Source: a bacterium
GTDB taxonomy: Bacteria; Patescibacteriota; Minisyncoccia; Phycocordibacterales; GWA1-40-21
DNA length: 49,736 nt
Assembly: GCA_037131755.1 (NCBI GenBank)
Contig: JBAXQJ010000005.1
Coordinates: forward strand, 1 to 49,736
Direction: 5' to 3'
Part shown: one piece after another, positions 13,231-40,656 of the stretch
Layout of the letters: every line of letters starts with the position of its first letter
How positions within the stretch are numbered: position 1 is the first letter of the stretch
The notes under the pieces: model-generated
The model's input: only the letters and a program-made list of their open reading frames with translations
What the model was told of the DNA's origin: nothing
The model's database searches: none
Translations under genes and position numbers: made by a program

Positions 13231-13234
13231 AAGA

Positions 13235-13268
13235 AAAACCCTCGAACCAATTACAGTTCGAGGGTTTT
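13235..13268. terminator. Bidirectional terminator
   Basis: aaaaccctcgaac-caattaca-gttcgagggtttt between the convergent yafQ and RHH genes. Confidence 0.7.
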
Positions 13269-13282
13269 GAGGGTGTGAGTGA

Positions 13283-13492: not shown

Positions 13493-13606
13493 TTAAGCCT
13501 CCTTTCTTTTCCCTCCACTTTAAGAAAAAACCTATTTAAGATGTTAGCAAATTATTTTCATTTATGCTACCGTTAAACAGGAAAAGAACAAAAAAGGAGG
13601 TGGAAG

Positions 13607-13864: not shown

Positions 13865-14118
13865 AACCGAAAAAGTAAAAGCTGAACGTCAACAAACGCT
13901 CAGCCTATTTTTTTGATTATTAATATGATATTCTAAAGCCGTCCGAGGGTAGTCCCAAAGACGCCTTTAATAATAATGTTTGGTCTATGAATAAGCAGTT
14001 TAGAAAAGGCATTCGCCGTTTCTGACCTGAAATTCGTAGAGCAAACTTAATAGAATTTTTTGCCAAGGAACGACCTTTCTAAAGATTTAAGGTCGCACCT
14101 TTTCAAAAAACAAACAAT

Positions 14119-24330: not shown

Positions 24331-24342
24331 CCAACTTTAGGA

Positions 24343-24377
24343 CAGTAAAAAACAGCCTTGTGGGCTGTTTTTTACTG
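24343..24377. terminator. Bidirectional terminator
   Basis: cagtaaaaaacagcc-ttgtg-ggctgttttttactg between the convergent rsmA and LamG-protein genes. Confidence 0.75.
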
Positions 24378-24382
24378 GAACA

Positions 24383-27061
24383 CTAGAACCAACTCTGCCA
24401 CATATTTCGATGTTTGGCAGTCGAAATACAGGTTCCGACTCCTCTTGTCCTCAAACTCCAACTTTCCACTCGACCAGCTGATTTGACTTCGGTGTTTCCG
24501 TAAGTAAACGAACTTAACTGTAATGCTCCAGGGGCAACCCTGATATCCTGGCTAGGTTTGCCGGCTTCTTGATCAGCTGTGGTGCACACTTCATCCCAAG
24601 CACCATTAGCAACACCAGCAAATACCATTGTTTTATCTTCAACTTTAGCCAAGGAAGTAACCATCAGGAAACCTTTATCAGTATTATAATAAGCAGCGTC
24701 TCTAGCTTCGATGGCTGTTGCCTCAGGATTTGGCTTCAACATTGAAACCGCTTTTTGTCCTGAACAAGCCTGGATCAAGACTTGGTAACGGCCATTGCTA
24801 CATTTGTTGACTTTCATAATCTGACCGGCAAACTGCACGCCGTAGTCTGGTTCATCTGGTTCTGGAGGAGGGACGGGGTACTCTTCACAAGGCTCGACCA
24901 CATCGTAGCCAGAGCTAGTATAATCGGCCGCGACGATAGTTGAGGTGGCGGTAGAATCATCGATCACTGAGAAACTTCCGCGCATCGTTCCATTATTGCT
25001 ATTGATTGAGATATCCGATACCGTACCATCGTCGAAAGTATAATACCCGATCAAGCCAGTCGCCCCTTTGGCCGAGCTCTTCATATCGGTTTTGATTTGG
25101 GCATCGGTGCGAGCCGTGTTCCACATCTTGATATCATCGAGCGAGCCGATAAAGCCGTTGCTATCCGCCGTGACCGATCCACAATATCGCGGATACATAT
25201 TCCCTAAATAGACATTGCTGGTTGGATTGGTCGAACCACTCGTGCCTGAACTGAGACCCAAAATCGAGTCGACAATGCTTTGGGCCGAACCGGAAGTCGA
25301 ACCGCCGAACAAGGAACTGCCGGAAGAGGTGGCTTGTGAGTAGAGTGTCCCGACTTCATTGGTGATTGATGACAACTTACTGATACTTGTCTTCTTATTG
25401 AATACCCCCCGTGGACCACTACACAAAGCAGTAGCATTAGTGGTCGAGGCTGTTGATGAACCAATAGTTGTATTGTAATCATACTTCACACCATTTACGT
25501 AAAGGCTCAATTTTTGTGCCAATTCATCAGCGACGACAGCGACATGAGTCCATTTATTTAATGGGACGGTCGAAGAACAAGTCCAAACCGAGGCATCATT
25601 GTTGCTGTAAACCAACTTACCATTATCAAGCGACAGGGCGTAATCAATATTCTTGCCGACATTTCCTTTGGAAATGATAACCGAGTCCTTGGTGCCGCTC
25701 ATACCGTTTGAAGTTCTCCAGGAAGTTGGTTTGACCCAAGCTTCCACGGTAATTTTGCTGTTAGTCTTTAGGCTATCAGTACCGGTAAGAGAAACAACGC
25801 CATTACCATCGGATGAGAAGAGGACTCGCTGTGCAATATCTGCTCCTGATTCGTTTGTGGATGAAGCGACATCGCTAAAGTCATCATAGGTTGGATCATT
25901 TGAGGTCTTGCCGGAAAAGATATTGGATAACGTACCATTACCATCAGCGTCAACCATATTTAGTTGAATATAATAAAGTGTATCTGGAGAAAGGTTAGGA
26001 ATAATCTGTTGGCGAACAACTTGCAAATCTTCGTAGGCCGCTCGATATGTCATGTCCATTGTTGTGCCATAACTAACAACGAGTTTCGCTAATTTATCAG
26101 TCGTGACTTTTATCATCAACTTGCTATAGCCGGGAATAAGCTGACTGTTCAAAATTTTTGGACCAAGATTATTCACGGCTGGGGCTGGGGTTGCACCGTC
26201 CACGTTGACAGTGACCGAATCGTTGACGGTTGTTCCATCTACTCCGCGACAGGTAATACTAAACACCCGACTTGCTGTCACTGGTGAAAAATTAACATTG
26301 CCGGCAATTTGTAGATTATTTGCCCCATCCGAACAAGCGCTTGTATTGATTGATGTCCAAGACAGAGAAACTGAAGAACCGGAATTCACAGAGACCGGAC
26401 CATCAGAACCATTAGCCTTGAGATCGACAGATGGTCGATTGGCAGAATTGGCGACGGCACCAGGACAATTCACTGCCGAAAGAGCCATGTTAGCTTTTTC
26501 CGGAGCAATGACACCGATATTCAAAAGTAGATTAACAAAAGAACAAATGGAAATACCATTGTCCGCTGGCTGAGCGACTGTTGTCGGCGCGACATAAGTC
26601 GTGACCGCGGCCCGGCTCTGAGGCAGACCGACTGAGTCGGAAGTGTTCATCACGCCAATCAATAGGTTCAATTTTGTTCTGGTGGCTTTGCCGACCGAAC
26701 CAGTACCTTTTGTGAGGCCGCTTGCCGTCAAAATCGCTTCGCGATATTTTTCTTGGAATTTGATGACAGCTGCTTTAGTGCCAGCGCCAAAATAGGTAGT
26801 TTCTTGGCCGCGCGAGCCGATACCGCTCAAGGAGATAGTAGTATCGACATCGGAATTCAAGACTTTTTGCAATTCTTTGACGTCCGGATCAGTATCGCCA
26901 AGCAGCAGATCTTTCTTAAAAGAAAAACCAGCCGTGACGACGCCCCGCAAGCTGCCAATGTTTTGCGCTTGGGAGACTTGGGGTAGGGCAAAGAAAAATG
27001 ATCCGATTCCCAAGAGCAAAGCGACCAATGAAACTGACGAAATTATTTTTTTAATAGACAT
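24383..27061 (-). CDS. Secreted PG-binding / Ig-like / LamG-domain giant surface protein (paralog 1)
   Basis: 892 aa. The order is signal peptide, PG_binding_1-like motif (DVKELQKVLN...YFGAGTKAAVIKFQEKY), Ig-like segment (VDLKANGSDGPVSV...LSWTS), LamG/ConA-like core (ITVEAWVKPTSWR...DYALSLDNGKLVYS...GSLDDIKMWNTART), S/T/G linker and a Cys-containing C-terminal domain. Confidence 0.85.
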   Translation of the reverse strand: MSIKKIISSVSLVALLLGIGSFFFALPQVSQAQNIGSLRGVVTAGFSFKKDLLLGDTDPDVKELQKVLNSDVDTTISLSGIGSRGQETTYFGAGTKAAVIKFQEKYREAILTASGLTKGTGSVGKATRTKLNLLIGVMNTSDSVGLPQSRAAVTTYVAPTTVAQPADNGISICSFVNLLLNIGVIAPEKANMALSAVNCPGAVANSANRPSVDLKANGSDGPVSVNSGSSVSLSWTSINTSACSDGANNLQIAGNVNFSPVTASRVFSITCRGVDGTTVNDSVTVNVDGATPAPAVNNLGPKILNSQLIPGYSKLMIKVTTDKLAKLVVSYGTTMDMTYRAAYEDLQVVRQQIIPNLSPDTLYYIQLNMVDADGNGTLSNIFSGKTSNDPTYDDFSDVASSTNESGADIAQRVLFSSDGNGVVSLTGTDSLKTNSKITVEAWVKPTSWRTSNGMSGTKDSVIISKGNVGKNIDYALSLDNGKLVYSNNDASVWTCSSTVPLNKWTHVAVVADELAQKLSLYVNGVKYDYNTTIGSSTASTTNATALCSGPRGVFNKKTSISKLSSITNEVGTLYSQATSSGSSLFGGSTSGSAQSIVDSILGLSSGTSGSTNPTSNVYLGNMYPRYCGSVTADSNGFIGSLDDIKMWNTARTDAQIKTDMKSSAKGATGLIGYYTFDDGTVSDISINSNNGTMRGSFSVIDDSTATSTIVAADYTSSGYDVVEPCEEYPVPPPEPDEPDYGVQFAGQIMKVNKCSNGRYQVLIQACSGQKAVSMLKPNPEATAIEARDAAYYNTDKGFLMVTSLAKVEDKTMVFAGVANGAWDEVCTTADQEAGKPSQDIRVAPGALQLSSFTYGNTEVKSAGRVESWSLRTRGVGTCISTAKHRNMWQSWF

Positions 27062-27062
27062 G

Positions 27063-27129
27063 ATTAATAATTATAGCGAGAACGAACCGGCGGTTTGAGC
27101 TCGCGGCTTTTAATGTGAATATTATATCA
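27063..27129 (-). promoter_or_regulatory. Conserved 52-nt leader plus extended -10 promoter (copy 1)
   Basis: 27063-27114 is identical to 29980-30031. On the minus strand TGATATAAT (27121-27129) lies 6 nt upstream of the conserved block. The block contains the hairpin GCGAG..AACCG-C-CGGTT..CTCGC and a second TATAAT 8 nt before the ATG. Confidence 0.55.
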
Positions 27130-27153
27130 TAGAACTTAGAACGTGGAACATAC

Positions 27154-27187
27154 AAAACCCCCGGTCGCTCACGCGACCGGGGGTTTT
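27154..27187 (-). terminator. Intrinsic terminator of LamG paralog 2
   Basis: aaaacccccggtcgc-tcac-gcgaccgggggtttt, a 15-bp perfect stem. Confidence 0.75.
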
Positions 27188-27218
27188 GTATGTTTGTTTT
27201 TTCTAAAATCTATTCCCG

Positions 27219-29978
27219 CTACCACCCAGCTTTTTCCATACCAGATCCAATAGCTGAACCAACACCGGCAACAGCAAGCCAAACAGCAGCAAGAGCTAAA
27301 CCACCACCGCCCAACGCTGCGACGGCAGCGGCACAAATAGGACAACCCACAACAAAGACTACCGCGACGACAACAACTACCGCAATCGTCTGCCATTGAT
27401 TTTTCTTCTTCGGCTTCATGCAGCTAATCGTCTCGATATTCCACTTTGTCGCCTTACCGGCAGCCGTCACTTGTTGACCGCCAGAGTTTGAGGAACAAGT
27501 ACTTTCACCACTAGCCGCCATAAGAGAAGTTCCCGAACCGGTATTGCCAACTACTGGTACTTTCATTCCTAAACCAGGCCAGAATTTCACCGCAATTGAA
27601 CCAGGGTTGAAATCGGCCGGAGTCTTGGAAGAAGAATTTGTCGAAGCGGTTGAAGTATACATATAAGAGGCTGGTCGATTCACCGCCGACACCACATCAG
27701 CTGGGGGATTGTCACAGGGCTGGATAATCGCTTCCTTGTATTGACCGCAAGACTGAACGCTTTTCACACTACCCTTGAAAGTAACTTCGTATTGATCAGT
27801 GGTACTGTCAGTTTCTTTTGGCATATAGCCGGCATCACAAGATTCTGGGAAATTCACATCACTACCCGCGACACCAGTGAGAGAGCCCTTGACCGCCGAT
27901 TTTGCGGTCGCATCTTCGATTATTTCTGACGTACCCTTGATCGCACCGTTGTTGCCATTACCCGTCATATCAGTCGCCAAACCATCATCAAAGGACCACT
28001 CGGCAACCAGGGCCGAAGCGCTTTGGCCAGCAACTGTGAAGGAAGCAGTGGTGGAAGTAGCCGTACTTGAAGACATATCGCTCACAATCTGGGTGGCCGT
28101 TCGAGCCGTATTCCAAATCTTCACATCATCGAGAGAACCAAGGAAACCATTGGTCTTGGTCGCATCCACATCACAAGCTTTGGGATAATAATTACCAATA
28201 TAGATATTGCTGGTATTAGAGACGGTACCACCTAGGCTGGTCCCAGTATTGGAACTAGTATTACCAGTGCTTGCGCTAGCGCCCCAACCACTGGAAGTAT
28301 TTGACGATGAACCCCAGCTACCGGTATTAGTATTGTTTGAACTAGTATTTCCAGACAACCAGCTATTTGAACCGCCGCTAGTACTGGTCGAAACGTATTC
28401 GGAGATCGAGTTAGACTTGTCGATTGAGGCTGCCTTGTTGAATACCCCACGGGTACCACCACAAAGGGTCGGGACGATCTTACCATCGACATACATATTC
28501 AAGATTCTGGTTGATTCATCGATCACGACCGCGACATTAGTCCATTTATTCAAGGATACGACCGGCGAACAAGACCAGGCCGCCGCATTATTGTTGCTAT
28601 AAACCAATTTTCCAGCATCCAAAGATAGGGCGTAATCCATATTTCCGCCAATATTGCCTTTAGAAATAATTACGGAATCATTGGTTCCAGCCAAGCCCGG
28701 AGTTGTGCGCCAAGCTGATGGCTTGACCCAAGCTTCAATAGTGACTTTGCTTTTGGTTTTCAAGCTATCTGACTCTTTAACTGAAACAATCCCCATACCA
28801 TCGGATGTATACAAGACTTTTTGGGTCAAACCGCCGTTTTCCGCCAGGGGAGTATCGGTTTGGAAGGTTTGTTCGTCAGTCAAGATACCCCGGCCGTTAG
28901 TATCAATGATAGCCAATTGAACATAATAGGTAGTATTTGGCTTCAAGTTCTTGATGGTAACTGAATGTGCGGTAGTTGTAGCTGTACCGGTGGCAACTTT
29001 GCTATCAGTAGCATTGGTTCGATATATCACTTGCATATTTGCCAAAACATCAGTTGTAGCAGTGATAGTTACATCTGTTCCACTGACCTGTGTATAAGAG
29101 TCTAAGATGTGAACGGTGGAGGAAGCTTGGATTTGCGCTGCACTCAACACAACATTCACTCCCACACTATCACTTACCGTACCACCAGAAGCTGTTTTAC
29201 AGTCTATACCATAATTTGCTGAGGTATTAACAACCACATCCTGGCTACCAGATAAAGATTTGGTGTTATTACCCGCTGAACACGAGGTCACATTGGCTGA
29301 TGTCCAAGAAAGAGTGATGGTGGCCCCAGGCGAGACAGAAACTGGACCATCTTGGCCATTCACCTTCAAATCAACCACCGAAGCTGAAGTCTGGGTCTGA
29401 GGTTGGGTCTGGTTATTTGGAATACAATTTACCGCCTGCAAGGCCAAAGTCGCCTTTTCCGGCGTAATCACATTGGAGACAATTAGGAGGTTCACAAACT
29501 GACAAATCTGCGAGCCGCTAGCTGTAGAACCCCCAGGAATAAGGCTATTTAGCTTAGTCCTAGTAGCTGGACCGACTTTACCGGTACCAGCCGAGAGGCT
29601 GTTTGGCGTCAAAATCTCGCTTCGATACTTTTCCTGGAATTTGATCACGGCTGCTTTGGTCGCCGGGCCAAAATAGTTAGATTCTTGGCCTTTTGAGCCA
29701 ATACCGGTAGGAGAAACGGCTGTATCAGTGCTGGCGTTTAGGAATTTTTGCAATTCCTTGACATCAGCATTGGTCTGACCAGACAGTAAATCATTTTGGA
29801 AGGTAAAACCGGTCGTGACTGAGCCTTGATAAGGATTGTTGGCCGGACTGGTTAAAGTCGTCGTCCCAACCGCTTGAGCGGAGGCTCGAGGAGTCAGAGC
29901 GGGATAGTAGGCAACAATCGAAACAAAAACAAAAATAAAGAGAATGGCCGAGCTAAAATATTTGTTATTAAATGACAT
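27219..29978 (-). CDS. PG-binding / Ig-like / LamG-domain giant surface protein with C-terminal membrane anchor (paralog 2)
   Basis: 919 aa with the same architecture as paralog 1 (DVKELQKFLN...YFGPATKAAVIKFQEKY; VTIEAWVKPSAWR...; GSLDDVKIWNTART). It adds a hydrophobic Gly/Ala/Val-rich C-terminus (TIAVVVVVAVVFVVGCPICAAAVAALGGGGLALAAVWLAVAGVG). Confidence 0.85.
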   Translation of the reverse strand: MSFNNKYFSSAILFIFVFVSIVAYYPALTPRASAQAVGTTTLTSPANNPYQGSVTTGFTFQNDLLSGQTNADVKELQKFLNASTDTAVSPTGIGSKGQESNYFGPATKAAVIKFQEKYRSEILTPNSLSAGTGKVGPATRTKLNSLIPGGSTASGSQICQFVNLLIVSNVITPEKATLALQAVNCIPNNQTQPQTQTSASVVDLKVNGQDGPVSVSPGATITLSWTSANVTSCSAGNNTKSLSGSQDVVVNTSANYGIDCKTASGGTVSDSVGVNVVLSAAQIQASSTVHILDSYTQVSGTDVTITATTDVLANMQVIYRTNATDSKVATGTATTTAHSVTIKNLKPNTTYYVQLAIIDTNGRGILTDEQTFQTDTPLAENGGLTQKVLYTSDGMGIVSVKESDSLKTKSKVTIEAWVKPSAWRTTPGLAGTNDSVIISKGNIGGNMDYALSLDAGKLVYSNNNAAAWSCSPVVSLNKWTNVAVVIDESTRILNMYVDGKIVPTLCGGTRGVFNKAASIDKSNSISEYVSTSTSGGSNSWLSGNTSSNNTNTGSWGSSSNTSSGWGASASTGNTSSNTGTSLGGTVSNTSNIYIGNYYPKACDVDATKTNGFLGSLDDVKIWNTARTATQIVSDMSSSTATSTTASFTVAGQSASALVAEWSFDDGLATDMTGNGNNGAIKGTSEIIEDATAKSAVKGSLTGVAGSDVNFPESCDAGYMPKETDSTTDQYEVTFKGSVKSVQSCGQYKEAIIQPCDNPPADVVSAVNRPASYMYTSTASTNSSSKTPADFNPGSIAVKFWPGLGMKVPVVGNTGSGTSLMAASGESTCSSNSGGQQVTAAGKATKWNIETISCMKPKKKNQWQTIAVVVVVAVVFVVGCPICAAAVAALGGGGLALAAVWLAVAGVGSAIGSGMEKAGW

Positions 29979-29979
29979 A

Positions 29980-30047
29980 ATTAATAATTATAGCGAGAAC
30001 GAACCGGCGGTTTGAGCTCGCGGCTTTTAATACTGATTATTGTATCA
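29980..30047 (-). promoter_or_regulatory. Conserved 52-nt leader plus extended -10 promoter (copy 2)
   Basis: 29980-30031 is identical to 27063-27114. On the minus strand TGATACAAT (30039-30047) lies 7 nt upstream of the block. Confidence 0.55.
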
Positions 30048-30126
30048 CATACAAATAGAACGTGAAGCTTCTTATTTCTGTCATCTTTACCTATTTCGCT
30101 CCGTCTTCACGAGAAGGCCTGGCGAC

Positions 30127-30183
30127 GAAGTGATCCAGGAATTAGAGTTCCTGGATTGCTTCACTTTGTTCGCAATGACAAAC
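30127..30183 (+). repeat. REP-like element, family GGATTGC-N-GCAATGACAAA
   Basis: 15-bp stem GAAGTGATCCAGGAA-ttagag-TTCCTGGATTGCTTC with two G:T pairs on the plus strand, followed by actttgttCGCAATGACAAAC. Confidence 0.65.
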
Positions 30184-30247
30184 GAAGACGATAATCAATT
30201 ATCAGGTTATTTTTCCCTAACACCTGATCCATGCTATAATTTCTACC

Positions 30248-31291
30248 ATGTTTAAAAAATATCTCCCTTCAAAAAAATTTATTATTGTCTTATCGTCCTT
30301 GGTTGTTGCTTTGATACTTATTTTTAGTTTCCAAGCAGCCACCGACTATCTTAAAAACAAGTCGGCTGTTCCAAATAATAAAAACCTCGCGCTCCAGACT
30401 TCTTTTAAAGAATTTATGGCCATCGACACCGATAAGGACGGCCTGCCAGACTGGGAAGAAGCCCTTTGGAAAACCGATCCGAAAAATCCGGACACCGATG
30501 GCGATGGAACATCAGATGGGGAAGAGGTAAAAGCCGGCCGGGATCCATTAAAAGCCAATACCGCCAAGGCCGGGCAGGAACCGAATGATAAAATCGATCC
30601 GCAAAAAATCGCCGCGGAAAAGAAAACCGTCCAAGAATATATTGATTTGTCAGCGACCGATAAACTGGCAAGAAGTTTGTTTTCTCAATACATCGCCACC
30701 AAAAAAGTCGGTCAAACAATGACCGAGAGCGACAAACAATATATCGTTCAGAATTTTATCGACAACCTGCCAAATCTGACTTACAAGGAATACACCCTCG
30801 GTGACCTTACGGTTCTTGGTACAAACACCACGGCGGAAGTCAAAAATTACGCCAACCAGGTCGCAGAAATACTATACAATAACTATCAAACAAAAACCGA
30901 TGACGTCTACACCATCATGTCGACTTATTTCAGCTCCGAAGATGCCGCCGCTCCAACTGCGCCCTTGCAAAAAATCCAGCCCATTATCGATAAAAATCTT
31001 AAAACAATCGCCAGCTTACTGAAAGTATCCGTACCAAACGAGGCAAAAAACGGCCACCTCTTGCTTGTAAACAGTTTCTATAAAATCACCCAGAATTTGC
31101 TGATATTGAGAGACGCCTCAAAAGACATTATGCTAACCCTATCTTCTTTGGAAAATTATGATGCCAATGTCACCAATCTTTCTTCGATATTGGATAATCT
31201 GGCCAACTACATCCAATCAAAGAAAATAAGTTTCGCTGCCACCGATTTTGGTTACAAATTATTTTATGATATAATTAATGGCAACAATTAA
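30248..31291 (+). CDS. Membrane-anchored protein with thrombospondin-type-3-like Ca-binding repeats
   Basis: 347 aa with an N-terminal TM and DTDKDGLPDWEE...DPKNPDTDGDGTSDGEE, followed by a helical domain of unknown family. TGcTATAAT ends 7 nt before the ATG. Confidence 0.7.
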   Translation: MFKKYLPSKKFIIVLSSLVVALILIFSFQAATDYLKNKSAVPNNKNLALQTSFKEFMAIDTDKDGLPDWEEALWKTDPKNPDTDGDGTSDGEEVKAGRDPLKANTAKAGQEPNDKIDPQKIAAEKKTVQEYIDLSATDKLARSLFSQYIATKKVGQTMTESDKQYIVQNFIDNLPNLTYKEYTLGDLTVLGTNTTAEVKNYANQVAEILYNNYQTKTDDVYTIMSTYFSSEDAAAPTAPLQKIQPIIDKNLKTIASLLKVSVPNEAKNGHLLLVNSFYKITQNLLILRDASKDIMLTLSSLENYDANVTNLSSILDNLANYIQSKKISFAATDFGYKLFYDIINGNN

Positions 31292-32996
31292 AATGTTTTC
31301 TAAAAGAAAAATTCTTCAAAAAACCCTTGGCTGTCTCCTGATCATCGGCCTTCTGCCGACCACTTTTGCTTTTGGCCAAACAGCCTCTGCTCCAGTCAAC
31401 ACCGCTCTTCCAACCGGTGTTGGTTATCCGACTTACGATTTTGGAACTGTCCACAACACCTGGGTTCTCGCGGGAATTCTTTCTGGCCAGCAGCCGGGTC
31501 AGCAGCAGGACAAAATCAGAATGACTGTCCCAAAACTGATCTTAAAAAGAATCTTGCGCGAACTAACAAAATCAATCACCACTTGGATTGACAACGGCTT
31601 TGAGGGTAATCCATCATTCGTAACAGATCCAAAAAAGTGGATAACGAATACAGCCGATATCACCGTCGGTGACTTTTTGTTGAATGACCCATCCCTAAGT
31701 TTCCTTTGTGATCCTTTTAAAATCCAAGTTAAATTGGCCCTTGGTCTTCAATACCAACCATTCAAAGAACAGATCAAATGTAGTTTTTCTGGTGCCTTGA
31801 ATAACACCAATCAAGCCTATAATAATTTCGTCAACGGCGATTTTATCAACGGGGGAGGCTGGGACTCTTGGTTAAAACTAACCACCGTACCACAGAACAA
31901 TCAGATGGGAGCCTCGATATTAGCTCAAGGAGAATTGGATGCGAGAATTGCCAATAACCAAGCCGCCGCTCAGACAGAATCGAGCTGGGGTAATGGTTTT
32001 ATGTCCTACAAGGAATGCACCAGGAAAACGACCGATGCTAGCGGAAAGGTCATCAGTACCGACACTTACCACGGTGATCCCACCACTCATCCGGCCAACG
32101 TTCCGCCCACGACGTCTATTACTAGGAATTTTGACCAATCAAACAGCACTTACACCGGCGTGACGACCGAAACCTGCGAAATCGTAACTCCGGGCTTGCA
32201 GATATTCCAAAAGCTTGGTTGGGCTGATAGCAGCACGATCAGAGAATTGGAATTGGCTGATGACATCAATGCCATCTTCACCGCCCTGGGAAACCAGCTC
32301 TTGACTTTGGGCATGGAGTCGCTCACCGGTGCCAAGAAAACCAAGACCAATGACAATTCGTACAACCAGTACATGGATTATCTGACCCAACAACAAGCCC
32401 AGCTGTCCTCACAAGGTATGTCTTACGACCCGTCAAATTATGGCAGTAATTTTTACTCCAGTAGCAACTCCGGTTCGTCATATCTAAATTCCAACAATGG
32501 AAAGAGTCAGGCTTTGGCCGCGGTAGAACAACAGAGAAATATCGAGATTGCTTATCAACAGAAAGTAAACGACGTTTTGAATTTACTCAACCAAGCCCGA
32601 GCCTCTTTTGCCGCCAAAACCGGCTGTAACAGCCTGATCCAAGACGCCGTGATCAATCGAATCGATGGGGTAGCCAGCAATTCCGGCAATCAGCTGTCTT
32701 TAAACAAGGTTACTCTGACCCAAGTCCTGACGACAACCGCCGGTAATATCTCCAAACTTGATGATTTGAAGAGCAATATTACTTCCGCTTCGAGCGACAC
32801 GGATTTTTCTCAAGTGGCTTCCGGTATCAGTGATGATGCTTCCTATCACAGCTCGACGGACAAATCCTACGAAACCACCGGTTCAAATTATCTTTTGATA
32901 AAAAACTGGCTGTCAGTGGCAAAAGACAGTTACAATAAGGACAACACCGGCCGACCAAATATGTGTACCGCCGATCTCAGTATGTGGGGAATATAG
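31278..32996 (+). CDS. Secreted hypothetical protein (S/N/Q-rich)
   Basis: 572-aa ORF with a signal-like N-terminus (LGCLLIIGLLPTTFAFGQTASA). The ATG at 31293, just after the upstream stop, is an equally plausible start. No family recognised. Confidence 0.65.
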   Translation: MATIKMFSKRKILQKTLGCLLIIGLLPTTFAFGQTASAPVNTALPTGVGYPTYDFGTVHNTWVLAGILSGQQPGQQQDKIRMTVPKLILKRILRELTKSITTWIDNGFEGNPSFVTDPKKWITNTADITVGDFLLNDPSLSFLCDPFKIQVKLALGLQYQPFKEQIKCSFSGALNNTNQAYNNFVNGDFINGGGWDSWLKLTTVPQNNQMGASILAQGELDARIANNQAAAQTESSWGNGFMSYKECTRKTTDASGKVISTDTYHGDPTTHPANVPPTTSITRNFDQSNSTYTGVTTETCEIVTPGLQIFQKLGWADSSTIRELELADDINAIFTALGNQLLTLGMESLTGAKKTKTNDNSYNQYMDYLTQQQAQLSSQGMSYDPSNYGSNFYSSSNSGSSYLNSNNGKSQALAAVEQQRNIEIAYQQKVNDVLNLLNQARASFAAKTGCNSLIQDAVINRIDGVASNSGNQLSLNKVTLTQVLTTTAGNISKLDDLKSNITSASSDTDFSQVASGISDDASYHSSTDKSYETTGSNYLLIKNWLSVAKDSYNKDNTGRPNMCTADLSMWGI

Positions 32997-33069
32997 CAGG
33001 TGACGGAAAAGAAAAAAGTGGACAAAAAATTAGCACTTGAATCGTTTTTGCGGTAGAATATAAGTTGAA

Positions 33070-35268
33070 ATGAAAATTAAATTTTCAAAATTTTTCACCC
33101 TGCTGACTATTTCAATAGTAGTCTTTTTGGGGTTATCTTTCTCCCCATACAATAGTACCAGAGCGATAGCTGGATCTATTTCAGATTGTTCATCTTTGGG
33201 TGGTGACAAAATATACACTTGCCAAGCTTATTACAGAGAAGTTCAAGGTGGTGCAAACTACGCGACGATTAATTTTAACGACGGAACAAAAATTAATGTA
33301 TTTCCTGATGGCAGTTCCATAAAATTCGATAAAAACGGCAATACAATTTCAAACACCGCTGATGGTTCAACAATGATATACAACCCCAATACAGGGAAGA
33401 CAGTAATAAAAGATTCCACTGGTAACATAAGAACCGAACAACTCACTGCCTCCGCGCCGGTTGAAGATCCATTCTTTTCAAATTGGCTGAAAGAAGCTGG
33501 TAAAATGGGTGGTTTAATCACTGGTGCTGTGGCAAAAACAGTTGCCATGGTTGTGGGAGGATTCCTCCAATTGATTTGGATTCCAACACTTTCAGCTTTA
33601 ATATATGTTGCTAGTTTTCTTGTTGATAAATCAGTCGAGTTCACTCTTTCTATTGGTTCCTTGGCGGGTATTGATTCTTCTGTAAATATTGCCTGGGTAA
33701 CGATCAGGAACGTTTTCAACATTTTCTTTATTTTTGCACTTTTGTACGCAGCTATTAAGATTATAATCGGGCAGACAGACAACAATTCAAAGAATATGCT
33801 TAAGAATGTCATCGTGGCTGCTCTCCTTATAAATTTCAGCCTATTTTTCACAAAGATTATTATTGATGCTGGAAACATTGTTGCGGCGGCCCTATATAAT
33901 TCACTAACCAACCAAGGAACTGTTGGTTTAGGATCATTATTAATGAAGGGTATGGGTATATCAGGACTATGGGGAGCAAGTGAAGCAAGTGTTGGCGGTG
34001 TTTTTAGCACATCATTCTTTATTATTTCCGCCGTACAAGCGACCACCCTACTTATAACTCTCGCCACCTTCATTTATATCGCTATATTATTTATTGTACG
34101 AACGGTTGGCCTAATATTTTTAATGGCCTTTTCACCAGTAGGTTTTATGGGTGATGTCTTGCCATTTATGGCTCCATATCAAAAAATGTGGCGCGACAAT
34201 TTATTTGGCCTAGTAGCAACTGCTCCAATCTTTTTACTTTTTACACAAATAATCGTGACGGTCTCTTCGCAAATGAAAGCGGCGATGGAAACTATGTCTA
34301 AAGAATCTGATGTGGCATACATTGCCTATTTTAAATATGCGATGGTAATAATATTACTAATTACCGCAGTTAAAGTCACCAAAAAATTCTCTGGCGCTGT
34401 TGGTTCATTTGTAGATGGCATAACCAAACTCGCCGTAGGCACAGCCGCTGGTGTTGCGACCGGGGGAGCGGCTTTGGCAATGAGAAAAGTAGTTGGTGGC
34501 AGTGCAGCAAAAATGGCCTCAAATGAAGATCTCAAAGCTCGAGCGGCAGCTGGTAGTATATCAGCCAGAATGCAGTTGGCAGCAGCAACTAAAGTATCAA
34601 AATCAAGCTTTGATGTTCGAAATGCCAATATTGCTGGCTTCAAACCAGGAGAGATGATCAGTAAACAAACCGGCTTTGATCTGAATGGTGGTCCGAAATT
34701 CACCCAGGTCGCCGACGGCGGTTATGCTGGGGCCCAAGATCGAGCCAAGAAAGCTCAGGCGGCAAGGATCAAAACTACCACAAACACCGATAGTGCAAAA
34801 GTTGATCCTTGGTCAGTAGATCAGAACCGTGTTGATAGTCATATAGCACAATTGAGACAAGATGCTCAAAATGACTTGGTAAATCATCAAACCGACAGAT
34901 CTCACAAGGAACAAGAATTTAATGACCCAAGAAAAACCAAAGACGAGAAAGACAAGATTGCCCAGGAAATTGCCGAATTAGACAAGAAGATTGCCAAAGC
35001 TCAACGCACAGCAAACTCAGCCAATGATCCGATTGCAACAGCCGAGCTCGAAGAACAGGCAAGAAAAAGTATTTCCAAGCAGGACTCAATAGACAAGGCA
35101 AAACAAAAAGAAAGAGAATTACTTAGTGGTGCACCATCCGAAGCCCACAAACAAGCAGCTGCGGCTTATAGGGCCTATGCAGCAGAACAGGAGAAGACAA
35201 AAACCACTGCGGATAAGACAAATGATCTTCTCCAACAACTTATTCAACAGAACCAACCTAAGCCATAA
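33070..35268 (+). CDS. TrbL/VirB6-like polytopic membrane protein with long charged C-terminal tail
   Basis: 732 aa with a signal/TM, a soluble domain of about 130 aa, at least 6 hydrophobic helices and a K/E/Q/A-rich tail of about 250 aa. The assignment rests on topology and on T4SS gene context. Confidence 0.6.
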   Translation: MKIKFSKFFTLLTISIVVFLGLSFSPYNSTRAIAGSISDCSSLGGDKIYTCQAYYREVQGGANYATINFNDGTKINVFPDGSSIKFDKNGNTISNTADGSTMIYNPNTGKTVIKDSTGNIRTEQLTASAPVEDPFFSNWLKEAGKMGGLITGAVAKTVAMVVGGFLQLIWIPTLSALIYVASFLVDKSVEFTLSIGSLAGIDSSVNIAWVTIRNVFNIFFIFALLYAAIKIIIGQTDNNSKNMLKNVIVAALLINFSLFFTKIIIDAGNIVAAALYNSLTNQGTVGLGSLLMKGMGISGLWGASEASVGGVFSTSFFIISAVQATTLLITLATFIYIAILFIVRTVGLIFLMAFSPVGFMGDVLPFMAPYQKMWRDNLFGLVATAPIFLLFTQIIVTVSSQMKAAMETMSKESDVAYIAYFKYAMVIILLITAVKVTKKFSGAVGSFVDGITKLAVGTAAGVATGGAALAMRKVVGGSAAKMASNEDLKARAAAGSISARMQLAAATKVSKSSFDVRNANIAGFKPGEMISKQTGFDLNGGPKFTQVADGGYAGAQDRAKKAQAARIKTTTNTDSAKVDPWSVDQNRVDSHIAQLRQDAQNDLVNHQTDRSHKEQEFNDPRKTKDEKDKIAQEIAELDKKIAKAQRTANSANDPIATAELEEQARKSISKQDSIDKAKQKERELLSGAPSEAHKQAAAAYRAYAAEQEKTKTTADKTNDLLQQLIQQNQPKP

Positions 35269-35276
35269 TTAAGTAA

Positions 35277-35978
35277 ATGGATGACCAATTTAAAAAAATA
35301 ATAGGGGAACAACTGATAAAAATTCCAGCTGACATAAAAGCGGCTATTGTTTCCATTGATTACAAAACAAAACTTCAGGAAATCACCAGACGACAGAAAC
35401 TTCTGATTGATCAAGCTGGCAGGCTGGAGACCGAGACAACTTTGGTGCTGCTTGGTCTAGAAAAACTTGGTGATTATGTCTCAAACCTTCAAAACGAACT
35501 CGGACTACCGATAATGCGGGCCAAAGAAGTATCTTTGGATGTCAGTGAAAACATCTTCAAACCGATTCGAGAATCATTGAGGCAGATGAATGAAGGTCTT
35601 AATGAAGAGGGTGGGGCACCAGCGACTGGCGTACCGGAAGAAGTTGCCTCCAGCCCGGAACGTAATAAAATTCTTAGCGAGATAGAAAATCCAAACACAA
35701 TTGGCCAAAACGGTTCGATGATGTTTACAAAAAATCCGACTCCAGCAACAGTAAACCCTGTACTAGTGGAAAAAAGTTCACCAATCATTCCAACGACTCC
35801 AAAAGAAAGCCTCTCAACTACAACAACAAAATCAGCCGGTGATTTGCTAGACGCCAAACTCAAAGATACCTTAATGATACCGAGAAACATTGTTGAGAAA
35901 AACGAAATCAGCAAGCTGCCGCCAGTCAACCGACCGCCATACAAAGGTTCGGATCCATACAAGGAACCAACGATCTAG
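35277..35978 (+). CDS. Hypothetical protein (no TM), T4SS-cluster associated
   Basis: 233-aa ORF in the same operon-like array. No family recognised. Confidence 0.55.
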   Translation: MDDQFKKIIGEQLIKIPADIKAAIVSIDYKTKLQEITRRQKLLIDQAGRLETETTLVLLGLEKLGDYVSNLQNELGLPIMRAKEVSLDVSENIFKPIRESLRQMNEGLNEEGGAPATGVPEEVASSPERNKILSEIENPNTIGQNGSMMFTKNPTPATVNPVLVEKSSPIIPTTPKESLSTTTTKSAGDLLDAKLKDTLMIPRNIVEKNEISKLPPVNRPPYKGSDPYKEPTI

Positions 35979-35999
35979 CCAGATTACTGAAAACAAAAC

Positions 36000-36419
36000 A
36001 TGAGATTTCAAGTCCCACAATTCATCGAAATAGAAGATAAGATTTTCGGACCACTGACAATCAAGCAGTTCATCTACTTGGCTGGTGGCGGCGGTTTGGC
36101 GTTCATCATCTTCCGCTTTTTGCCGCTAATGATAGCTATCCCTTTGATTATTGTCGCTATCGGCTTTTCCTTGCTCATGGCCTTCTATACCGTCAACAAC
36201 AAGCCTTTTATCGGTGTTGTTCAATCGGCAGTCACATATTTTTTCTCCAACAAGCTTTATCTTTGGAAAAAACAAGACCGAAAACCGATTTCCAAAACAG
36301 AACCAACCAACACAGAAAAAGCGGGCGGTCAGCTTTTCATTCCGAAATTATCCGATAGTAAGCTAAAGGACATCACCTGGAGCCTCGATATCAACGAAAC
36401 AGTGGGAGGGAAAGAGTAG
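36000..36419 (+). CDS. PrgI-family (VirB3-like) small membrane protein
   Basis: 139 aa. MRFQVPQFIEIEDKIFGPLTIKQFIYLAGGG is followed by two TM helices, which is the PrgI-family pattern. It sits upstream of VirB4, as in Gram-positive T4SS loci. Confidence 0.65.
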   Translation: MRFQVPQFIEIEDKIFGPLTIKQFIYLAGGGGLAFIIFRFLPLMIAIPLIIVAIGFSLLMAFYTVNNKPFIGVVQSAVTYFFSNKLYLWKKQDRKPISKTEPTNTEKAGGQLFIPKLSDSKLKDITWSLDINETVGGKE

Positions 36420-36493
36420 GGAGAAGTAGCTTCTTATGTTCATATAAAGTATAATAATAAGGAAACGAGAAGGAATTTTAATTTTTAATCTAC

Positions 36494-37132
36494 ATGGTAG
36501 TTGCCAAAGCCACCCAAGAATTTGTCCCGATCAAAGAAGTCCGGGATGGAATAGTCATCATGAAAGACGGCTCCATGCGAGCGGTAATCGCCGTATCGTC
36601 TTTAAACTTTGCCTTGAAATCAAACGATGAGAGGGAAGCCCTGATTTACCAATTCCAAAATTTCCTAAACTCCCTGGATTTTTCGGTTCAAATTTCCATC
36701 CAATCGCGTGCCTTGGATATCCGCCCTTATCTGGCCACTTTGGAAAAGCAATACAACGCCCAAATCAATGACTTGCTGAAAATACAGATCCGCGAGTATA
36801 TTTCTTTCGTCCGCAGCTTCACTGAGGAGGTGAATATCATGAGAAAAAGTTTCTATGTCGTCATTCCCTTTACCCCAACACTCCTAAATACCAAAAAGGA
36901 AGGGGGCTTGCTGTCATCGCTCGGTTTTGGGGCAAAAAACAAAACTAAAACGTCTGAAACAGACAGTTTCAATGAAAGCCGAACCCAGCTCGAACAGCGT
37001 CTAGGTGTTGTCCAGCAAGGTCTGCTCAGTTGTGGTCTCCGAAGCGCCCAATTAGGCACCGAAGAAATCGTCGAAGTCTTTTATAAGTTATTCAATCCGG
37101 GCAGCACGGAAAAGCCGATGCAGTTTCAATAA
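36494..37132 (+). CDS. Possible detached N-terminal module of VirB4-type ATPase
   Basis: 212 aa with EFVPIKEVRDGIVIMKDGSMRAVIAVSSLNFALKS.DERE. From memory, this pattern occurs at the N termini of long Gram-positive VirB4/PrgJ-type proteins. The ORF is separated from the ATPase ORF by 130 nt and a frame change. Confidence 0.45.
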   Translation: MVVAKATQEFVPIKEVRDGIVIMKDGSMRAVIAVSSLNFALKSNDEREALIYQFQNFLNSLDFSVQISIQSRALDIRPYLATLEKQYNAQINDLLKIQIREYISFVRSFTEEVNIMRKSFYVVIPFTPTLLNTKKEGGLLSSLGFGAKNKTKTSETDSFNESRTQLEQRLGVVQQGLLSCGLRSAQLGTEEIVEVFYKLFNPGSTEKPMQFQ

Positions 37133-37151
37133 AAACTCCGGTTGGCCGTCT

Positions 37152-37228
37152 TTGCGAGGAAGTGGCTGACGAAGCAAACCAGTAATTATAAAGATGGATT
37201 GCTTCGGGATTACCCTCGCAATGACAAA
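37152..37228 (+). repeat. REP-like nested hairpin, family GGATTGC-N-GCAATGACAAA
   Basis: TTGCGAGG...GAAGCAAACC-loop-GGATTGCTTC...CCTCGCAA-TGACAAAAC forms two nested inverted repeats. It lies between the 212-aa ORF and the VirB4 ATPase ORF. Confidence 0.65.
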
Positions 37229-37262
37229 ACAAAAGAACTGAAAGACTAAATATAAAAATACC

Positions 37263-39080
37263 ATGGGAATATTTGATTTTTTAAACAAAAAAAGCTCGAA
37301 AAAGGATGAACTAACCTCATTCTTGCCTCAAGAAATCTACGAGGCTGGCGTTTTGGAGTTGCAGGATGTGATCGCACCTTCAGCGCTCAAGATCAGCCCC
37401 AACCAAATCAATCTTGGCGAAAAGATCGCCCGAACTTTCTTTATCATTTCCTATCCGCGCTTTTTGACCGAAAGCTGGTTTGCACCAATCATCAACTTGG
37501 ACAAAGTTTTCAACGTCTCAATCTTCATTCACCCGATCGAAACGTCAAAGATCCTGCGCCAATTCCAAAAGAAAGTGGCCGAGGTGCAAAGCCAGATCAA
37601 CCAGCGGGAAAATAGGGGATTGGTGCGTGATCCGGTCTTGGATACCGCCTATCAAGACCTTGAGAGTTTGCGTGATAGTCTTCAGCAGGCGCAGGAGAAA
37701 CTTTTTGACGCTGGAATTTATCTAACCATTTATGGCGACAATGAAGACGATTTGAACAAGGTAGAGACGGAGATGAAAACCATTTTGGAATCCAAACTCG
37801 TCTATATCAAACCGGCTCTTTTCCAACAAGAACAAGGCTATAAGAGCATCCTGCCGACCTGCGATGACCAGCTTTTGGTTCACTCAAAATTAAATTCTTC
37901 GCCGCTTTCCAGCATTTTCCCATTTATTTCTTTCGACCTCACCCAAGAAAAAGGTATTCTCTATGGTATCAACCGACACAACAACAGCTTGGTTTTGTTT
38001 GATCGTTTTTCCCAAGATAACTACAATTCCGTCACCTTTGCCAAGGCTGGTTCCGGTAAATCCTACGCGGCCAAGCTGGAAATATTGAGAACCTTGATGT
38101 TTGATGTCGATGTGATCGTGATCGACCCGGAAAATGAATTCCACTATCTCGCCGAGGCTGTTGGTGGAAAAGTATTTAACATTTCCTTGAACTCGGAGAG
38201 TCATATCAATCCATTTGAACTGCCGCACCCACGCGAAGACGAGGCACCATCAGATGTTTTGCGTTCCAACATCATCAACTTGGTGGGAATGTTCCGAATC
38301 ATGTTTGGTGGTCTCACTCCAGAGGAGGATGCGATCATCGATCGAGCGATCACCGAGACTTATGCTTTGAAAGATATTACCCCAGAATCTGATTTTGTGA
38401 ATTTGGAGCCACCGCTTTTGTCGGACTTTGAATTGGTCTTATCTGGAATGGAAGGGGCGGAGAGTCTGGCGCAAAAACTGTCAAAATTCACCCGCGGTTC
38501 CTGGTCTGGCTTTATCAATCGTCCATCAACCGTCGACATCGACGCCAAGTTCGTCGTGTTCTCGATCCGTGATATGGAAGATGAACTTCGTGCTGTCGCG
38601 ATGTATATCATCACGCACTTCATCTGGACAGCGATCAGAAAAGTAAAGAAGAAGCGATTATTGGTGGTGGATGAAGCGTGGGTGATGATGCGTTCTGACG
38701 ATGCCGCTTCTTTCCTTTTTGGTATTGCTAAACGCTGTCGTAAATACTGGCTGGGTCTCGCGACTATTACCCAAGACGTCGACGACTTTTTGAATTCACC
38801 TTATGGTATGCCGATTGTGACCAACTCATCGATCCAAATCCTGCTCAAACAATCGCCATCAACAGTGGAACACCTGAAAGAAGTTTTCAACCTGACCGAG
38901 GACGAGAAATTCCTGTTATTGGAGTCAGATGTGGGTGAGGGACTATTCTTTGTCGGCCAGAAACATGTGGCAATCAAGATCAAAGCTTCATATACTGAGG
39001 ATCAAATCATCACTTCCGACCCATCACAGCTCTTGGCAATTCAGCGCTCAAGAGAAGAACTACAGGCAAGTCAGAACTAG
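37263..39080 (+). CDS. VirB4/TraE-type T4SS ATPase
   Basis: 605 aa with Walker A AKAGSGKSYAAK, Walker B RLLVVDEAW, and the N-terminal pattern IAPSALKISPNQINLGEKIARTFFIISYPRFL, typical of the family. Confidence 0.85.
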   Translation: MGIFDFLNKKSSKKDELTSFLPQEIYEAGVLELQDVIAPSALKISPNQINLGEKIARTFFIISYPRFLTESWFAPIINLDKVFNVSIFIHPIETSKILRQFQKKVAEVQSQINQRENRGLVRDPVLDTAYQDLESLRDSLQQAQEKLFDAGIYLTIYGDNEDDLNKVETEMKTILESKLVYIKPALFQQEQGYKSILPTCDDQLLVHSKLNSSPLSSIFPFISFDLTQEKGILYGINRHNNSLVLFDRFSQDNYNSVTFAKAGSGKSYAAKLEILRTLMFDVDVIVIDPENEFHYLAEAVGGKVFNISLNSESHINPFELPHPREDEAPSDVLRSNIINLVGMFRIMFGGLTPEEDAIIDRAITETYALKDITPESDFVNLEPPLLSDFELVLSGMEGAESLAQKLSKFTRGSWSGFINRPSTVDIDAKFVVFSIRDMEDELRAVAMYIITHFIWTAIRKVKKKRLLVVDEAWVMMRSDDAASFLFGIAKRCRKYWLGLATITQDVDDFLNSPYGMPIVTNSSIQILLKQSPSTVEHLKEVFNLTEDEKFLLLESDVGEGLFFVGQKHVAIKIKASYTEDQIITSDPSQLLAIQRSREELQASQN

Positions 39081-39092
39081 CTTTTTTGTCAT

Positions 39093-39201
39093 ACCTACCC
39101 CCAATTACCTTTTTAGAGCACGGATATTTTCTTACTAGAAAATTCCTCGAGTTCGGCTCAGTCAGCCTCACTAGTCTCTAAAAAGGCAATTAGGGGTAGG
39201 T
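39093..39201 (+). repeat. Structured intergenic element (copy B)
   Basis: The core 39110-39184 is nearly identical to copy A. The outer stem acctacccccaattacc / ggcaattaggggtaggt is locus-specific and is followed by TTTTT. It starts 13 nt after the VirB4 stop. Confidence 0.8.
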
Positions 39202-39253
39202 TTTTGAGTTCTATGTTTAACGTTTTATTTCTATATGCTATAATATTTGCAGT

Positions 39254-40270
39254 ATGAAAAAAACATTTTTCTTCTCATTTTTATTTACCCTACTGATCAT
39301 TGGGGTGTTACCGGCCCTTTCTTCGGCTCAAACGACAAACACTGCCACGCCAAACTTAAACGACCAATTTTTACAAATTTCCCTCTCGCCAGACAATCCG
39401 GAACCGGGTCAAAATTATTCGGCCACAATTTCCAGTTATGTTTTTGACCTAGACCGCTCTACCATCAGGTGGTATGTGAACGGCCAACTTAAAAAAGAGG
39501 GTAGCGGCTTGAAGGTTTTTTATGATCAGGCGGGCAAGAGCGGGGTGGCAACCGTCATTAGGGCAGTGGCAACAACCCAAGACAACCAGACATCGGAGAT
39601 AAGCGCGACGATTGTTCCAGCTAGCGTTGATTTGATTTACGAGGCCTACTCATACGTCCCACCCTTTTATAAAGGCAAAGCCTTGAATGTAAACCAAGGT
39701 TCGGTCATTTTAGCTGCCATTCCGAATATTATGCAAAACGGAACGAAAATTGCCGCTCAAAAACTGGTTTATACCTGGAAAAAAGACGGCACTGTCCAAG
39801 GGTCTTTTTCCGGGGTCGGGAAGAACACCTTCAGCTTCAACGGTTCCGTTCCGATTCGTGATGTGGAAATAGAAGTGTCTGTTTCCTCGCCGGACAATTC
39901 CGTGACCGCCAGCAAATCCCTGACCGTGCCTTTTGTCTCGCCTAAAATACTTTTCTATGAAGATAGCCCCGTCTATGGGACAATGTTCAACCGTGCCATC
40001 ACCCAGACCGTCGGCCTATTGACTGATGAATTTTCCGTCAAGGCTTTTCCATATTTTTTCAGCGCCGGTTTTCCTCAAAGCTCAAATTTGATTTACAATT
40101 GGACGATGAATGGGCAGGGGATTGAGACCCCCGCTGTACCAAACCTCGTCACCTTCCGCCAAGATACGCCCGGTGCCGGCAATGCGAATGTAGGCCTAAA
40201 AATCAGCAACACTGCCAGAATTTTCCAATTTGTTGAAAATAACTTTAGTATCCTATTCCAAAAACAATAA
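39254..40270 (+). CDS. Secreted beta-rich hypothetical protein
   Basis: 338 aa with signal peptide MKKTFFFSFLFTLLIIGVLPALSSA. TGcTATAAT ends 9 nt before the ATG. No family recognised. Confidence 0.65.
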   Translation: MKKTFFFSFLFTLLIIGVLPALSSAQTTNTATPNLNDQFLQISLSPDNPEPGQNYSATISSYVFDLDRSTIRWYVNGQLKKEGSGLKVFYDQAGKSGVATVIRAVATTQDNQTSEISATIVPASVDLIYEAYSYVPPFYKGKALNVNQGSVILAAIPNIMQNGTKIAAQKLVYTWKKDGTVQGSFSGVGKNTFSFNGSVPIRDVEIEVSVSSPDNSVTASKSLTVPFVSPKILFYEDSPVYGTMFNRAITQTVGLLTDEFSVKAFPYFFSAGFPQSSNLIYNWTMNGQGIETPAVPNLVTFRQDTPGAGNANVGLKISNTARIFQFVENNFSILFQKQ

Positions 40271-40271
40271 T

Positions 40272-40655: not shown

Positions 40656-40656
40656 T

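Follow-up and report, generated by a model that had tools for sequence, protein, structure and literature searches.

What are two large, adjacent genes doing between rsmA and a type IV secretion system (T4SS) in the genome of an ultra-small bacterium? We address this question for a 49,736-nucleotide stretch of a metagenome-assembled genome (MAG; GCA_037131755.1, contig JBAXQJ010000005.1), which at its full length we refer to as the window. The two genes lie on the minus strand, and we name them paralog A (P0002, 919 aa, 27219-29978) and paralog B (P0001, 892 aa, 24383-27061). A sequence-only reading of the window had described them as tandem paralogous giant surface proteins. The two open reading frames (ORFs) are there to the nucleotide, and their products align at 37% identity over the full length (BLASTP, E 7e-167); with some 900 aa each, the proteins are large rather than giant. 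The reading that we favour, at a probability of roughly 0.55, is that the pair are accessory, polymorphic, lectin-like surface adhesins, with A held by the membrane and B bound to the wall or to A. Adhesion is the role that their domain content and their position make most likely.

Both proteins have the same order of parts: a signal peptide, a PG_binding_1 module, a helical hairpin bracketed by Cys residues, an Ig-like domain, an Fn3-like domain, a Laminin_G_3 (LamG) domain and a Cys-containing C-terminal beta-domain. The sequence-only reading had this order without the hairpin and the Fn3-like domain, the latter of which it missed, and its peptidoglycan-binding and LamG modules are both borne out by Pfam hidden Markov models (HMMs), which reach their cut-offs in both proteins. 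There is no NCBIfam match for either P0001 or P0002. Evidence for the parts includes Pfam matches, an alignment of 13 full-length homologues and an AlphaFold2 (AF2) model of P0002, built on 13 homologues, with an overall predicted local distance difference test score (pLDDT) of 52. All features of the pair lie on the minus strand.

In A, the signal peptide (residues 1-35, ending RASA/QA; 29874-29978) is a heuristic call on the hydrophobic N-terminal stretch. The Ala at position -1 is invariant in the alignment, and on these two features both proteins would be exported by Sec. The PG_binding_1 module covers residues ~55-147 of A (29538-29816; Pfam residues 70-142) and ~45-135 of B (26657-26929; Pfam residues 58-107). 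It scores 28.0 bits in P0002 and a marginal 23.2 bits in P0001, for a gathering cut-off of 23, and a six-frame scan of the genome finds it at 29622-29771 (A, 28.4 bits) and 26741-26890 (B, 25.7 bits). Helices are predicted in this part of A at residues 71-82, 105-122 and 137-145. The sole other PG_binding_1 match in the genome (G000 contig C8:3358-3531, 35.5 bits) is inside a 1038-aa frame in which similarity to P0002 is not detectable beyond that module. The Cys-bracketed hairpin of A (C159...C185; 29418-29510) has modelled helices at 156-167 and 173-182. Both of its Cys residues are invariant, and the hairpin is present twice in P0004, P0008, P0010 and P0011.

The Ig-like domain of A (residues 198-278, with C233/C260; 29145-29387) has AF2 strands between 201 and 276 at pLDDT ~75-87 and no Pfam family match. 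The Fn3-like domain (residues 288-375; 28854-29117) has Pfam profile matches below their cut-offs (fn3, 19.6 bits for a cut-off of 25; Pur_ac_phosph_N, 22.7 for 30). The model shows residues 200-375 as two consecutive beta-sandwiches with pLDDT ~65-87, and the top 50 Foldseek matches of this segment in the PDB are Ig-Fn3 and Fn3 tandems at probability 0.9-1.0. From these two results we conclude that the Ig-like domain exists, followed by an Fn3-like domain.

The Laminin_G_3 profile scores 68.6 bits in P0001 and 43.5 bits in P0002 (cut-off 27.6), in each case in two separate stretches. In A, the N-terminal two thirds of the domain are residues 385-505 (28464-28826; Pfam residues 402-504 against profile positions 11-104 of 151) and the C-terminal third residues 591-640 (28059-28208). 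Between the two lies a low-complexity insert rich in Ser, Thr, Gly and Asn (S/T/G/N; residues 506-590, 28209-28463), disordered in the model at pLDDT below 30 and variable in length and sequence among the homologues. In B, the LamG domain (residues 408-662; 25076-25840; Laminin_G_3 and Pentaxin matches) has its own low-complexity insert at ~531-612. The sequence-only reading had placed the S/T/G/N stretch after LamG, as a linker. That placement does not hold: the split Laminin_G_3 match, the C-terminal matches to Laminin_G_2 (profile positions 83-123, residues 579-621 of A) and to Pentaxin (profile positions 94-169, residues 588-662 of B), and the invariant residues that follow the stretch (N610, G611, F612, G614 and D617 in the alignment) make it a disordered loop of about 80 residues inside LamG. 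The LamG sandwich itself is resolved in the model at pLDDT ~70. After the domain, residues 655-690 of A (27909-28016) hold a motif resembling a LamG N-terminal strand, AEWSFDDGLATDMTGNGNNGAIKG, which matches positions 3-33 of profile A5. An exhaustive search finds this motif, AEWSFDDG...NGNNGAIKG, as the first strand in hundreds of LamG-repeat proteins; here its pLDDT is below 50.

The C-terminal Cys beta-domain (C-domain) covers residues 729-857 of A (27408-27794 from the alignments; genome-scan match 27411-27794) and 738-892 of B (24386-24850; genome-scan match 24470-24850, E 3e-28). Its motif is F-G-G-x-V-x-x-V-x-x-C ... V-x-I-x-P-C ... GYIVIR ... VGD ... C ... IGTVTG. The domain has neither a Pfam match nor a PDB sequence match, and a PDB profile search returned no match beyond the LamG strand motif. 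Word-based homologue searches with the C-terminal regions found 3 proteins each, and an exhaustive HMM search found the full domain in only about 20 of 1.84 billion representative proteins. The alignments show that the sequence-only reading was right to set this domain apart, as real and conserved. Structure prediction was less rewarding: the model has pLDDT 58, and the OB-fold-like matches in Foldseek are weak (best E 0.027), so that we assign no fold. We regard the C-domain as a four-Cys domain that is undescribed, restricted to this locus and specific to the lineage.

The tail of A (residues 858-919; 27222-27407) consists of a Lys-rich stretch, a transmembrane helix ending in CPIC, the residues GGGG and a Gly/Ala-rich hydrophobic segment ending in EKAGW. 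Its Kyte-Doolittle hydropathy exceeds 1.6 from residue 859 to the C-terminus, AF2 places helices over residues 861-916, and within it is a 20-residue, strongly hydrophobic helix of the kind seen in stop-transfer anchors. The hydrophobic tail is found only in the 919-aa copy, as the sequence-only reading had it, and orthologues of both types retain the difference. The stretch 27219-27400, called unusually GC-rich in that reading, does have a GC content of 0.533, compared with 0.467 for the remaining gene, but there is nothing unusual in this, as it follows from Gly, Ala and Val codons. No Pfam family matches the P0002 tail, pilin and glycine-zipper families included. We considered the tail as a VirB2/T4SS_pilin-like segment (PF18895) and rejected it (with the pilin of the locus, BLASTP aligns 7 residues at E 0.18, and the pilin HMM does not match), and likewise as a glycine-zipper module (PF13488 and relatives), which has no match in P0002. 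The last residue is aromatic, mostly Trp (for example AGW, SWF, FNW, FGW, NPW or FDW), in almost all members of the family, whether or not they carry the tail. Some homologues, the G011 protein and P0047 among them, have a basic stretch before it. The aromatic C-terminus could be a conserved terminal motif for sorting or docking.

This architecture follows a plan of head, cargo and tail part. The head is the PG_binding_1 module, putatively a three-helix bundle, with the putatively disulfide-bracketed hairpin and the Ig-like domain; the cargo is the Fn3-like domain and a LamG/concanavalin-like lectin with its long S/T/G/N-rich loop; and the tail part is the four-Cys beta-domain, with the hydrophobic membrane segment added in A only.

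How the pair relates to the T4SS can be judged from 61 genomes of the same order (G000-G060), in which we located P0002-like sequence, the first T4SS gene and rsmA. A genome is assessable when rsmA and the first T4SS gene are on one contig, which is the case for 52, and occupancy was tallied by hand from the coordinates. The two genes are no more than 6 kb apart in 52/52 (the junction in the window is 24331-30247), and the slot between them has three kinds of content. In 28/52 genomes it holds a PG_binding-headed gene (10 in the genus, 14 in other genera of the same family and 4 in other families). In 7/52 it holds another gene, without a P0002 match. In 17/52, which include the congeners G007 and G009, there is no room (gap at most 0.55 kb); these empty junctions span 44-530 bp, and the first T4SS gene is kept in all 17. 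Two genes share the slot in G000, G010, G023, G026 and the metagenomic loci L004-L006, and one gene is present in most other filled slots. In all three of these metagenomic loci the pair has rsmA on one side and the T4SS operon on the other.

The C-domain is common to most slot proteins within the family. Its profile gives 13 matches in 11 of the 61 genomes, and all 13 are in the rsmA-T4SS slot. These genes are anything but randomly placed relative to the T4SS junction, and the C-domain is specific to the slot. To this extent the co-occurrence suspected in the sequence-only reading is real; what does not survive is a constant companionship, given that 17/52 slots are empty. Since the T4SS persists in those 17 without a slot gene, the slot proteins are accessory and not part of the machine, and a core T4SS component would be expected wherever the T4SS cluster is, which they are not, congeners G007 and G009 included. 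A coupling of the slot proteins to the T4SS is tentatively suggested.

The contents of the slot are themselves variable. In 20 slots that we fetched, the proteins range from 255 to 1171 aa, with a signal peptide in every one and PG_binding_1 at E <= 0.001 in most; the cargo is LamG, DUF5018/PKD, SprB/PKD-like repeats, TIG or an unknown domain of about 250 aa. The full LamG architecture is found in only 4 of the 61 genomes (G000, G001, G008 and G010). The junction resembles a hotspot at which surface-protein genes are gained, are lost and exchange domains. The ~250-aa cargo domain occurs in L103 (G011, 849-3380), L104 (G013, 2182-4974), L110 (G026, 425-2884) and L006 (12783-15095). It carries the motifs IVGYG..N.WM, ..TT.IN.V.W, KAQRW and WF.EYHPCS, has neither a Pfam nor a PDB sequence match, and could be an unrecognised glycan-active domain. 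At L005, AbiEii and two AAA_14/DUF4143 ATPase genes are inserted within the T4SS operon and between the slot genes (1763-3117, 5771-7042 and 12964-14175); the T4SS genes left on that contig are still called as complete genes. We looked for a counterpart in S. epibionticum and found none, as the T4SS flank there has lysozyme/CHAP and M15/M23-like proteins instead.

The duplication is old. The maximum-likelihood tree unites P0001 with P0009 and P0012 (support 100/99) and P0002 with P0003 (100/100). P0003 adjoins P0009 on one contig (L004), and each paralog is nearer to the orthologue from another genome than to its own neighbour. Because the A and B clades are separate and supported, the duplication predates the species, and both copies were retained. 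The A type has the hydrophobic tail, a transmembrane helix ending in CxxC and then a Gly/Ala-rich segment. The B type has its own insertions and ends in KHRxxxxxW-F (KHRNMWQSWF in B), and the tail-less end is common to P0001, P0009 and P0012. The head is the most conserved part, at 67% identity between the paralogs and 62-85% between orthologues. LamG is 56-63% and Fn3 31% identical between the paralogs, and the C-domain 23% between paralogs and 49-63% between orthologues. By these identities, the A and B types differ chiefly at the C-terminal end. The sequence-only reading had also proposed a ratio of nonsynonymous to synonymous substitution (dN/dS) for each domain. The paralogs can be aligned for it, but third-position identity in identical codons is 0.13-0.68, mostly ~0.3-0.5, so that synonymous sites are near saturation, the ratio between paralogs is uninformative, and we rely on the amino-acid identities instead. 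In a strain variant from one metagenome, 20 of 26 differences in the P0001 head are synonymous, which indicates purifying selection on the head. Gene conversion is rejected as the source of these differences, as only 10 of the 26 have the base of the paralog.

In the adhesin reading, A would be retained in the epibiont membrane by the hydrophobic segment that its hydropathy predicts at the C-terminus, and B, without a tail, would be released and stay attached through its peptidoglycan-binding head or through A. LamG and its flexible loop would bind surface glycans, and the peptidoglycan-binding and LamG modules together would contact cell-wall glycans of the host or of the own wall. The sequence-only reading had one copy tethered at both ends. 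The anchor in a single copy stands, but the double tethering is weakened, as it assumes that the head binds the own wall and the head could equally bind that of the host. With the C-terminus as the anchor, the head would be distal and could bind an exposed Gram-positive host wall rather than the own wall, which would remove the paradox of a protein fixed at both ends. A middle that is swapped between a conserved head and a conserved tail is what we would expect of a recognition protein with its ends docked to constant structures, and argues against a fitted structural role.

Several observations weigh against this reading. The rsmA-T4SS synteny is order-wide, so that the adjacency may be historical only. 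PG_binding_1 is only at its cut-off in P0001, and most of the head has a poor model, with pLDDT below 50. Overall model confidence is low, as the pLDDT values of 52 (full length) and 58 (C-domain) show. Three metatranscriptome runs from a sample that holds the organism gave no reads, and no metatranscriptome contigs were found on the region. With its N-terminus bound to the wall and its C-terminus in the membrane, a protein of this kind could also stay wholly within the envelope of its own cell and not project as an adhesin. The Lys-rich stretch comes before the transmembrane helix and not after it, which is unusual for a type I anchor and makes the membrane topology of A uncertain. Finally, the genome encodes two sortases, yet neither P0001 nor P0002 has an LPxTG motif.

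The alternative that survives best is that these are general wall-associated surface or glycan-binding proteins, serving envelope structure or polysaccharide capture without a functional tie to the T4SS, and that the junction is a tolerated insertion site near the origin. Much of the slot survey is compatible with it. The proximity of rsmA to the first T4SS gene in all 52 assessable genomes includes the 17 in which the two are directly adjacent; the congeners with an empty slot retain the T4SS, and one of them, G009, is without any C-domain. Relatives carry PG_binding-headed proteins at other loci too, with as many as 8 matches in a genome, some relatives have a cargo that looks enzyme-like or unknown and not lectin-like, and the L005 insertions show that unrelated genes have entered the same region. 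Moreover, since the order pcrA-rsmA-slot-T4SS holds across the order, adjacency by itself cannot separate function from inherited gene order. What speaks against this alternative is that the C-domain is found in the slot only (13/13 matches), that headed slot proteins are found in four other families of the order too, and that the gene diverges from the T4SS operon over a shared region of 269 bp. We consider it possible, if rather unlikely.

A second alternative makes the pair a structural T4SS accessory that ties or guides the machine through the wall, in the manner of ExeA/GspA, with a membrane anchor at one end and the head in the wall. The ends of A, one a PG-binding head and the other a membrane segment, fit this, and so do the conservation of the head above all other parts and the position directly beside the operon. 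Such a part would not be expected to be missing where the T4SS is kept, as in 17/52 relatives, nor to have a middle freely exchanged between species in proteins of 255-1171 aa, and B has no anchor at all; we judge it very unlikely. That the proteins are instead contact-dependent and membrane-active, with a Gly/Ala-rich tail inserting into the host membrane and the lectin and PG modules aiming it, is barely credible: the tail of the G001 homologue does match Gly-zipper_Omp (28.5 bits for a cut-off of 25) and tails vary in length, being Gly-rich and not classical transmembrane helices in several homologues, but the P0002 tail has a stop-transfer-type helix in place of a glycine-zipper match, B lacks a tail altogether, and neither a toxin-like domain nor an immunity-like small gene is found nearby.

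The adhesin reading also has a bolder form. The slot could be a host-range cassette, with a fixed chassis (PG-binding head, Cys beta-domain and membrane tail) and recognition modules (LamG, PKD, TIG or an unknown domain) that are swapped between species, in which an anchored A and a free B form a docking complex that presses the essential T4SS onto the Gram-positive host wall while the distal head grips host peptidoglycan. We hold this form to be quite unlikely as it stands.

A 52-nt leader lies directly upstream of B (27063-27114, minus strand), and an identical one directly upstream of A (29980-30031, minus strand); zero such matches are expected by chance. Within the leader are the palindrome AACCGCCGGTT and, 8 nt ahead of the ATG, a second TATAAT; its two copies are preceded by TGATATAAT / TGATACAAT. 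The signal-peptide coding sequence next to it is only 44% identical in nucleotides between the paralogs, and we therefore reject recent gene conversion as the cause; an identical leader beside a diverged coding sequence means that the leader itself has been under selection, and co-regulation of the two paralogs is probable. As RNA the leader folds weakly (-11.2 kcal/mol, z -1.7), and it seems no less likely to be the operator of a dimeric regulator than an RNA element. A diverged leader, AAACCGTCGGTTT, stands before both paralogs of L004, upstream of 6596 and 9717. The deposited start of P0003 (L004 6596) is probably too late: an in-frame ATG 48 nt upstream, right after the conserved leader, would give P0003 a P0002-like N-terminus. 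Between the genes, hairpin analysis finds a GC-rich hairpin with a 20-bp stem (27147-27194, on neither strand in particular), a terminator of A; with this hairpin 3' of P0002, A and B are separate transcription units.

The assembly is a MAG of 727 kb, 98.5% complete, whose closest named relatives are Candidatus Saccharibacteria MAGs, and sequence of the locus is present in lake and freshwater metagenomes. The T4SS-like operon (30248-41895, plus strand) encodes a TSP3_bac protein, a PrgI/VirB3-like protein, a VirB4 (359.8 bits to NF045971), a T4SS_pilin (40230-40655) and several unassigned proteins. Its PrgI, VirB4 and T4SS_pilin confirm the divergent placement of the pair beside a T4SS-like operon that the sequence-only reading described. 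The 269-bp shared region lies between the gene and the start of the operon, an arrangement also seen in L004-L006. In one lake metagenome, window positions 30141-30407 reach a summed contig depth of 103x, compared with 3-5x on both sides; this element is evidently common to many organisms or loci in that sample. The other genes of the window are dnaA, dnaN, yidC, a class A penicillin-binding protein, polynucleotide phosphorylase (PNPase), pcrA/uvrD and rsmA. As dnaA and dnaN (44104-46904) lie 2-5 kb past the operon, the whole region is origin-proximal, like other reported Patescibacteria T4SS clusters, and the T4SS here is the chromosomal, origin-proximal, relaxase-less type known from Patescibacteria (10.1101/2025.01.22.634366).

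Little is known of how ultra-small epibionts recognise their hosts and stay attached to them; in two oral strains, type IV pili and a small number of essential adhesin-like proteins have been identified. In S. epibionticum the T4SS is essential for epibiotic growth, as are several adhesin-like surface proteins (PMC10633639). The sole lineage-wide survey of T4SS loci in the candidate phyla radiation (CPR) found no adhesin, PrgB-type adhesins not being detected (10.1101/2025.01.22.634366). The present locus is a concrete candidate for host recognition in uncultivated environmental Saccharibacteria, and if cargo type tracks host identity, the slot would mark host range in uncultivated lineages. 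Being accessory, its proteins cannot explain why the T4SS itself is essential.

Four known systems invite comparison. ExeA/GspA of the type II secretion system is a PG_binding_1 accessory protein of an envelope machine; ExeA is linked to an AAA+ ATPase at the cytoplasmic membrane and has a constant architecture. Like it, A combines a PF01471 module, a putative membrane anchor and genetic linkage to a secretion machine. Unlike it, the slot proteins have variable lectin cargo, and the machine is found without them.

The cell-wall-anchored PrgB / aggregation substance adhesins of Gram-positive conjugative T4SSs (PMC12857230) are also large exported surface proteins beside monoderm-type T4SS genes and accessory to the channel, and they share with the pair the plan of a wall-attachment device, an Ig-like stalk and a glycan- or polymer-binding domain. 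The pair differs in having no LPxTG, though sortases exist, and no polymer adhesin domain of the GbpC or antigen I/II type (no Pfam match at E <= 1). In place of these there is putative non-covalent wall attachment by an N-terminal PG_binding_1 and, in one copy, a C-terminal membrane tail. The T4SS differs as well, being chromosomal, without a relaxase, and also encoding pilins. Comparable in concept are the catalytically inactive VirB1-type peptidoglycan binders proposed as conjugation adhesins of lactococcal plasmids (PMC11067333, as cited in PMC12857230), with which the pair shares the idea of a T4SS-linked PG-binding module that grips the partner wall without cutting it. The lactococcal binders derive from hydrolase folds, and here there is PG_binding_1 and no hydrolase-like domain.

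The pair also resembles the lectin-like surface proteins of Patescibacteria with concanavalin/LamG, VCBS and Fn3 domains, presumed or shown to act in host attachment (PMC10633639, for example SEML1_0890/0891; PMC12911398), which are exported and combine beta-sandwich stalks with carbohydrate-binding modules. Lectin/concanavalin proteins of the CPR are generally assumed to function in attachment (PMC12911398). The likeness to those of S. epibionticum is one of domain composition; the pair has its own head and an undescribed C-domain. Another difference from other Patescibacteria lectin-like proteins is that this family occupies a single chromosomal slot only, and only within one family-level lineage of environmental Saccharibacteria. 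It is a lineage-specific variant of the CPR lectin-like surface proteins long assumed to be related to attachment, distinguished by its undescribed C-terminal domain and by a head-cargo-tail plan that is polymorphic at one fixed position next to the T4SS.

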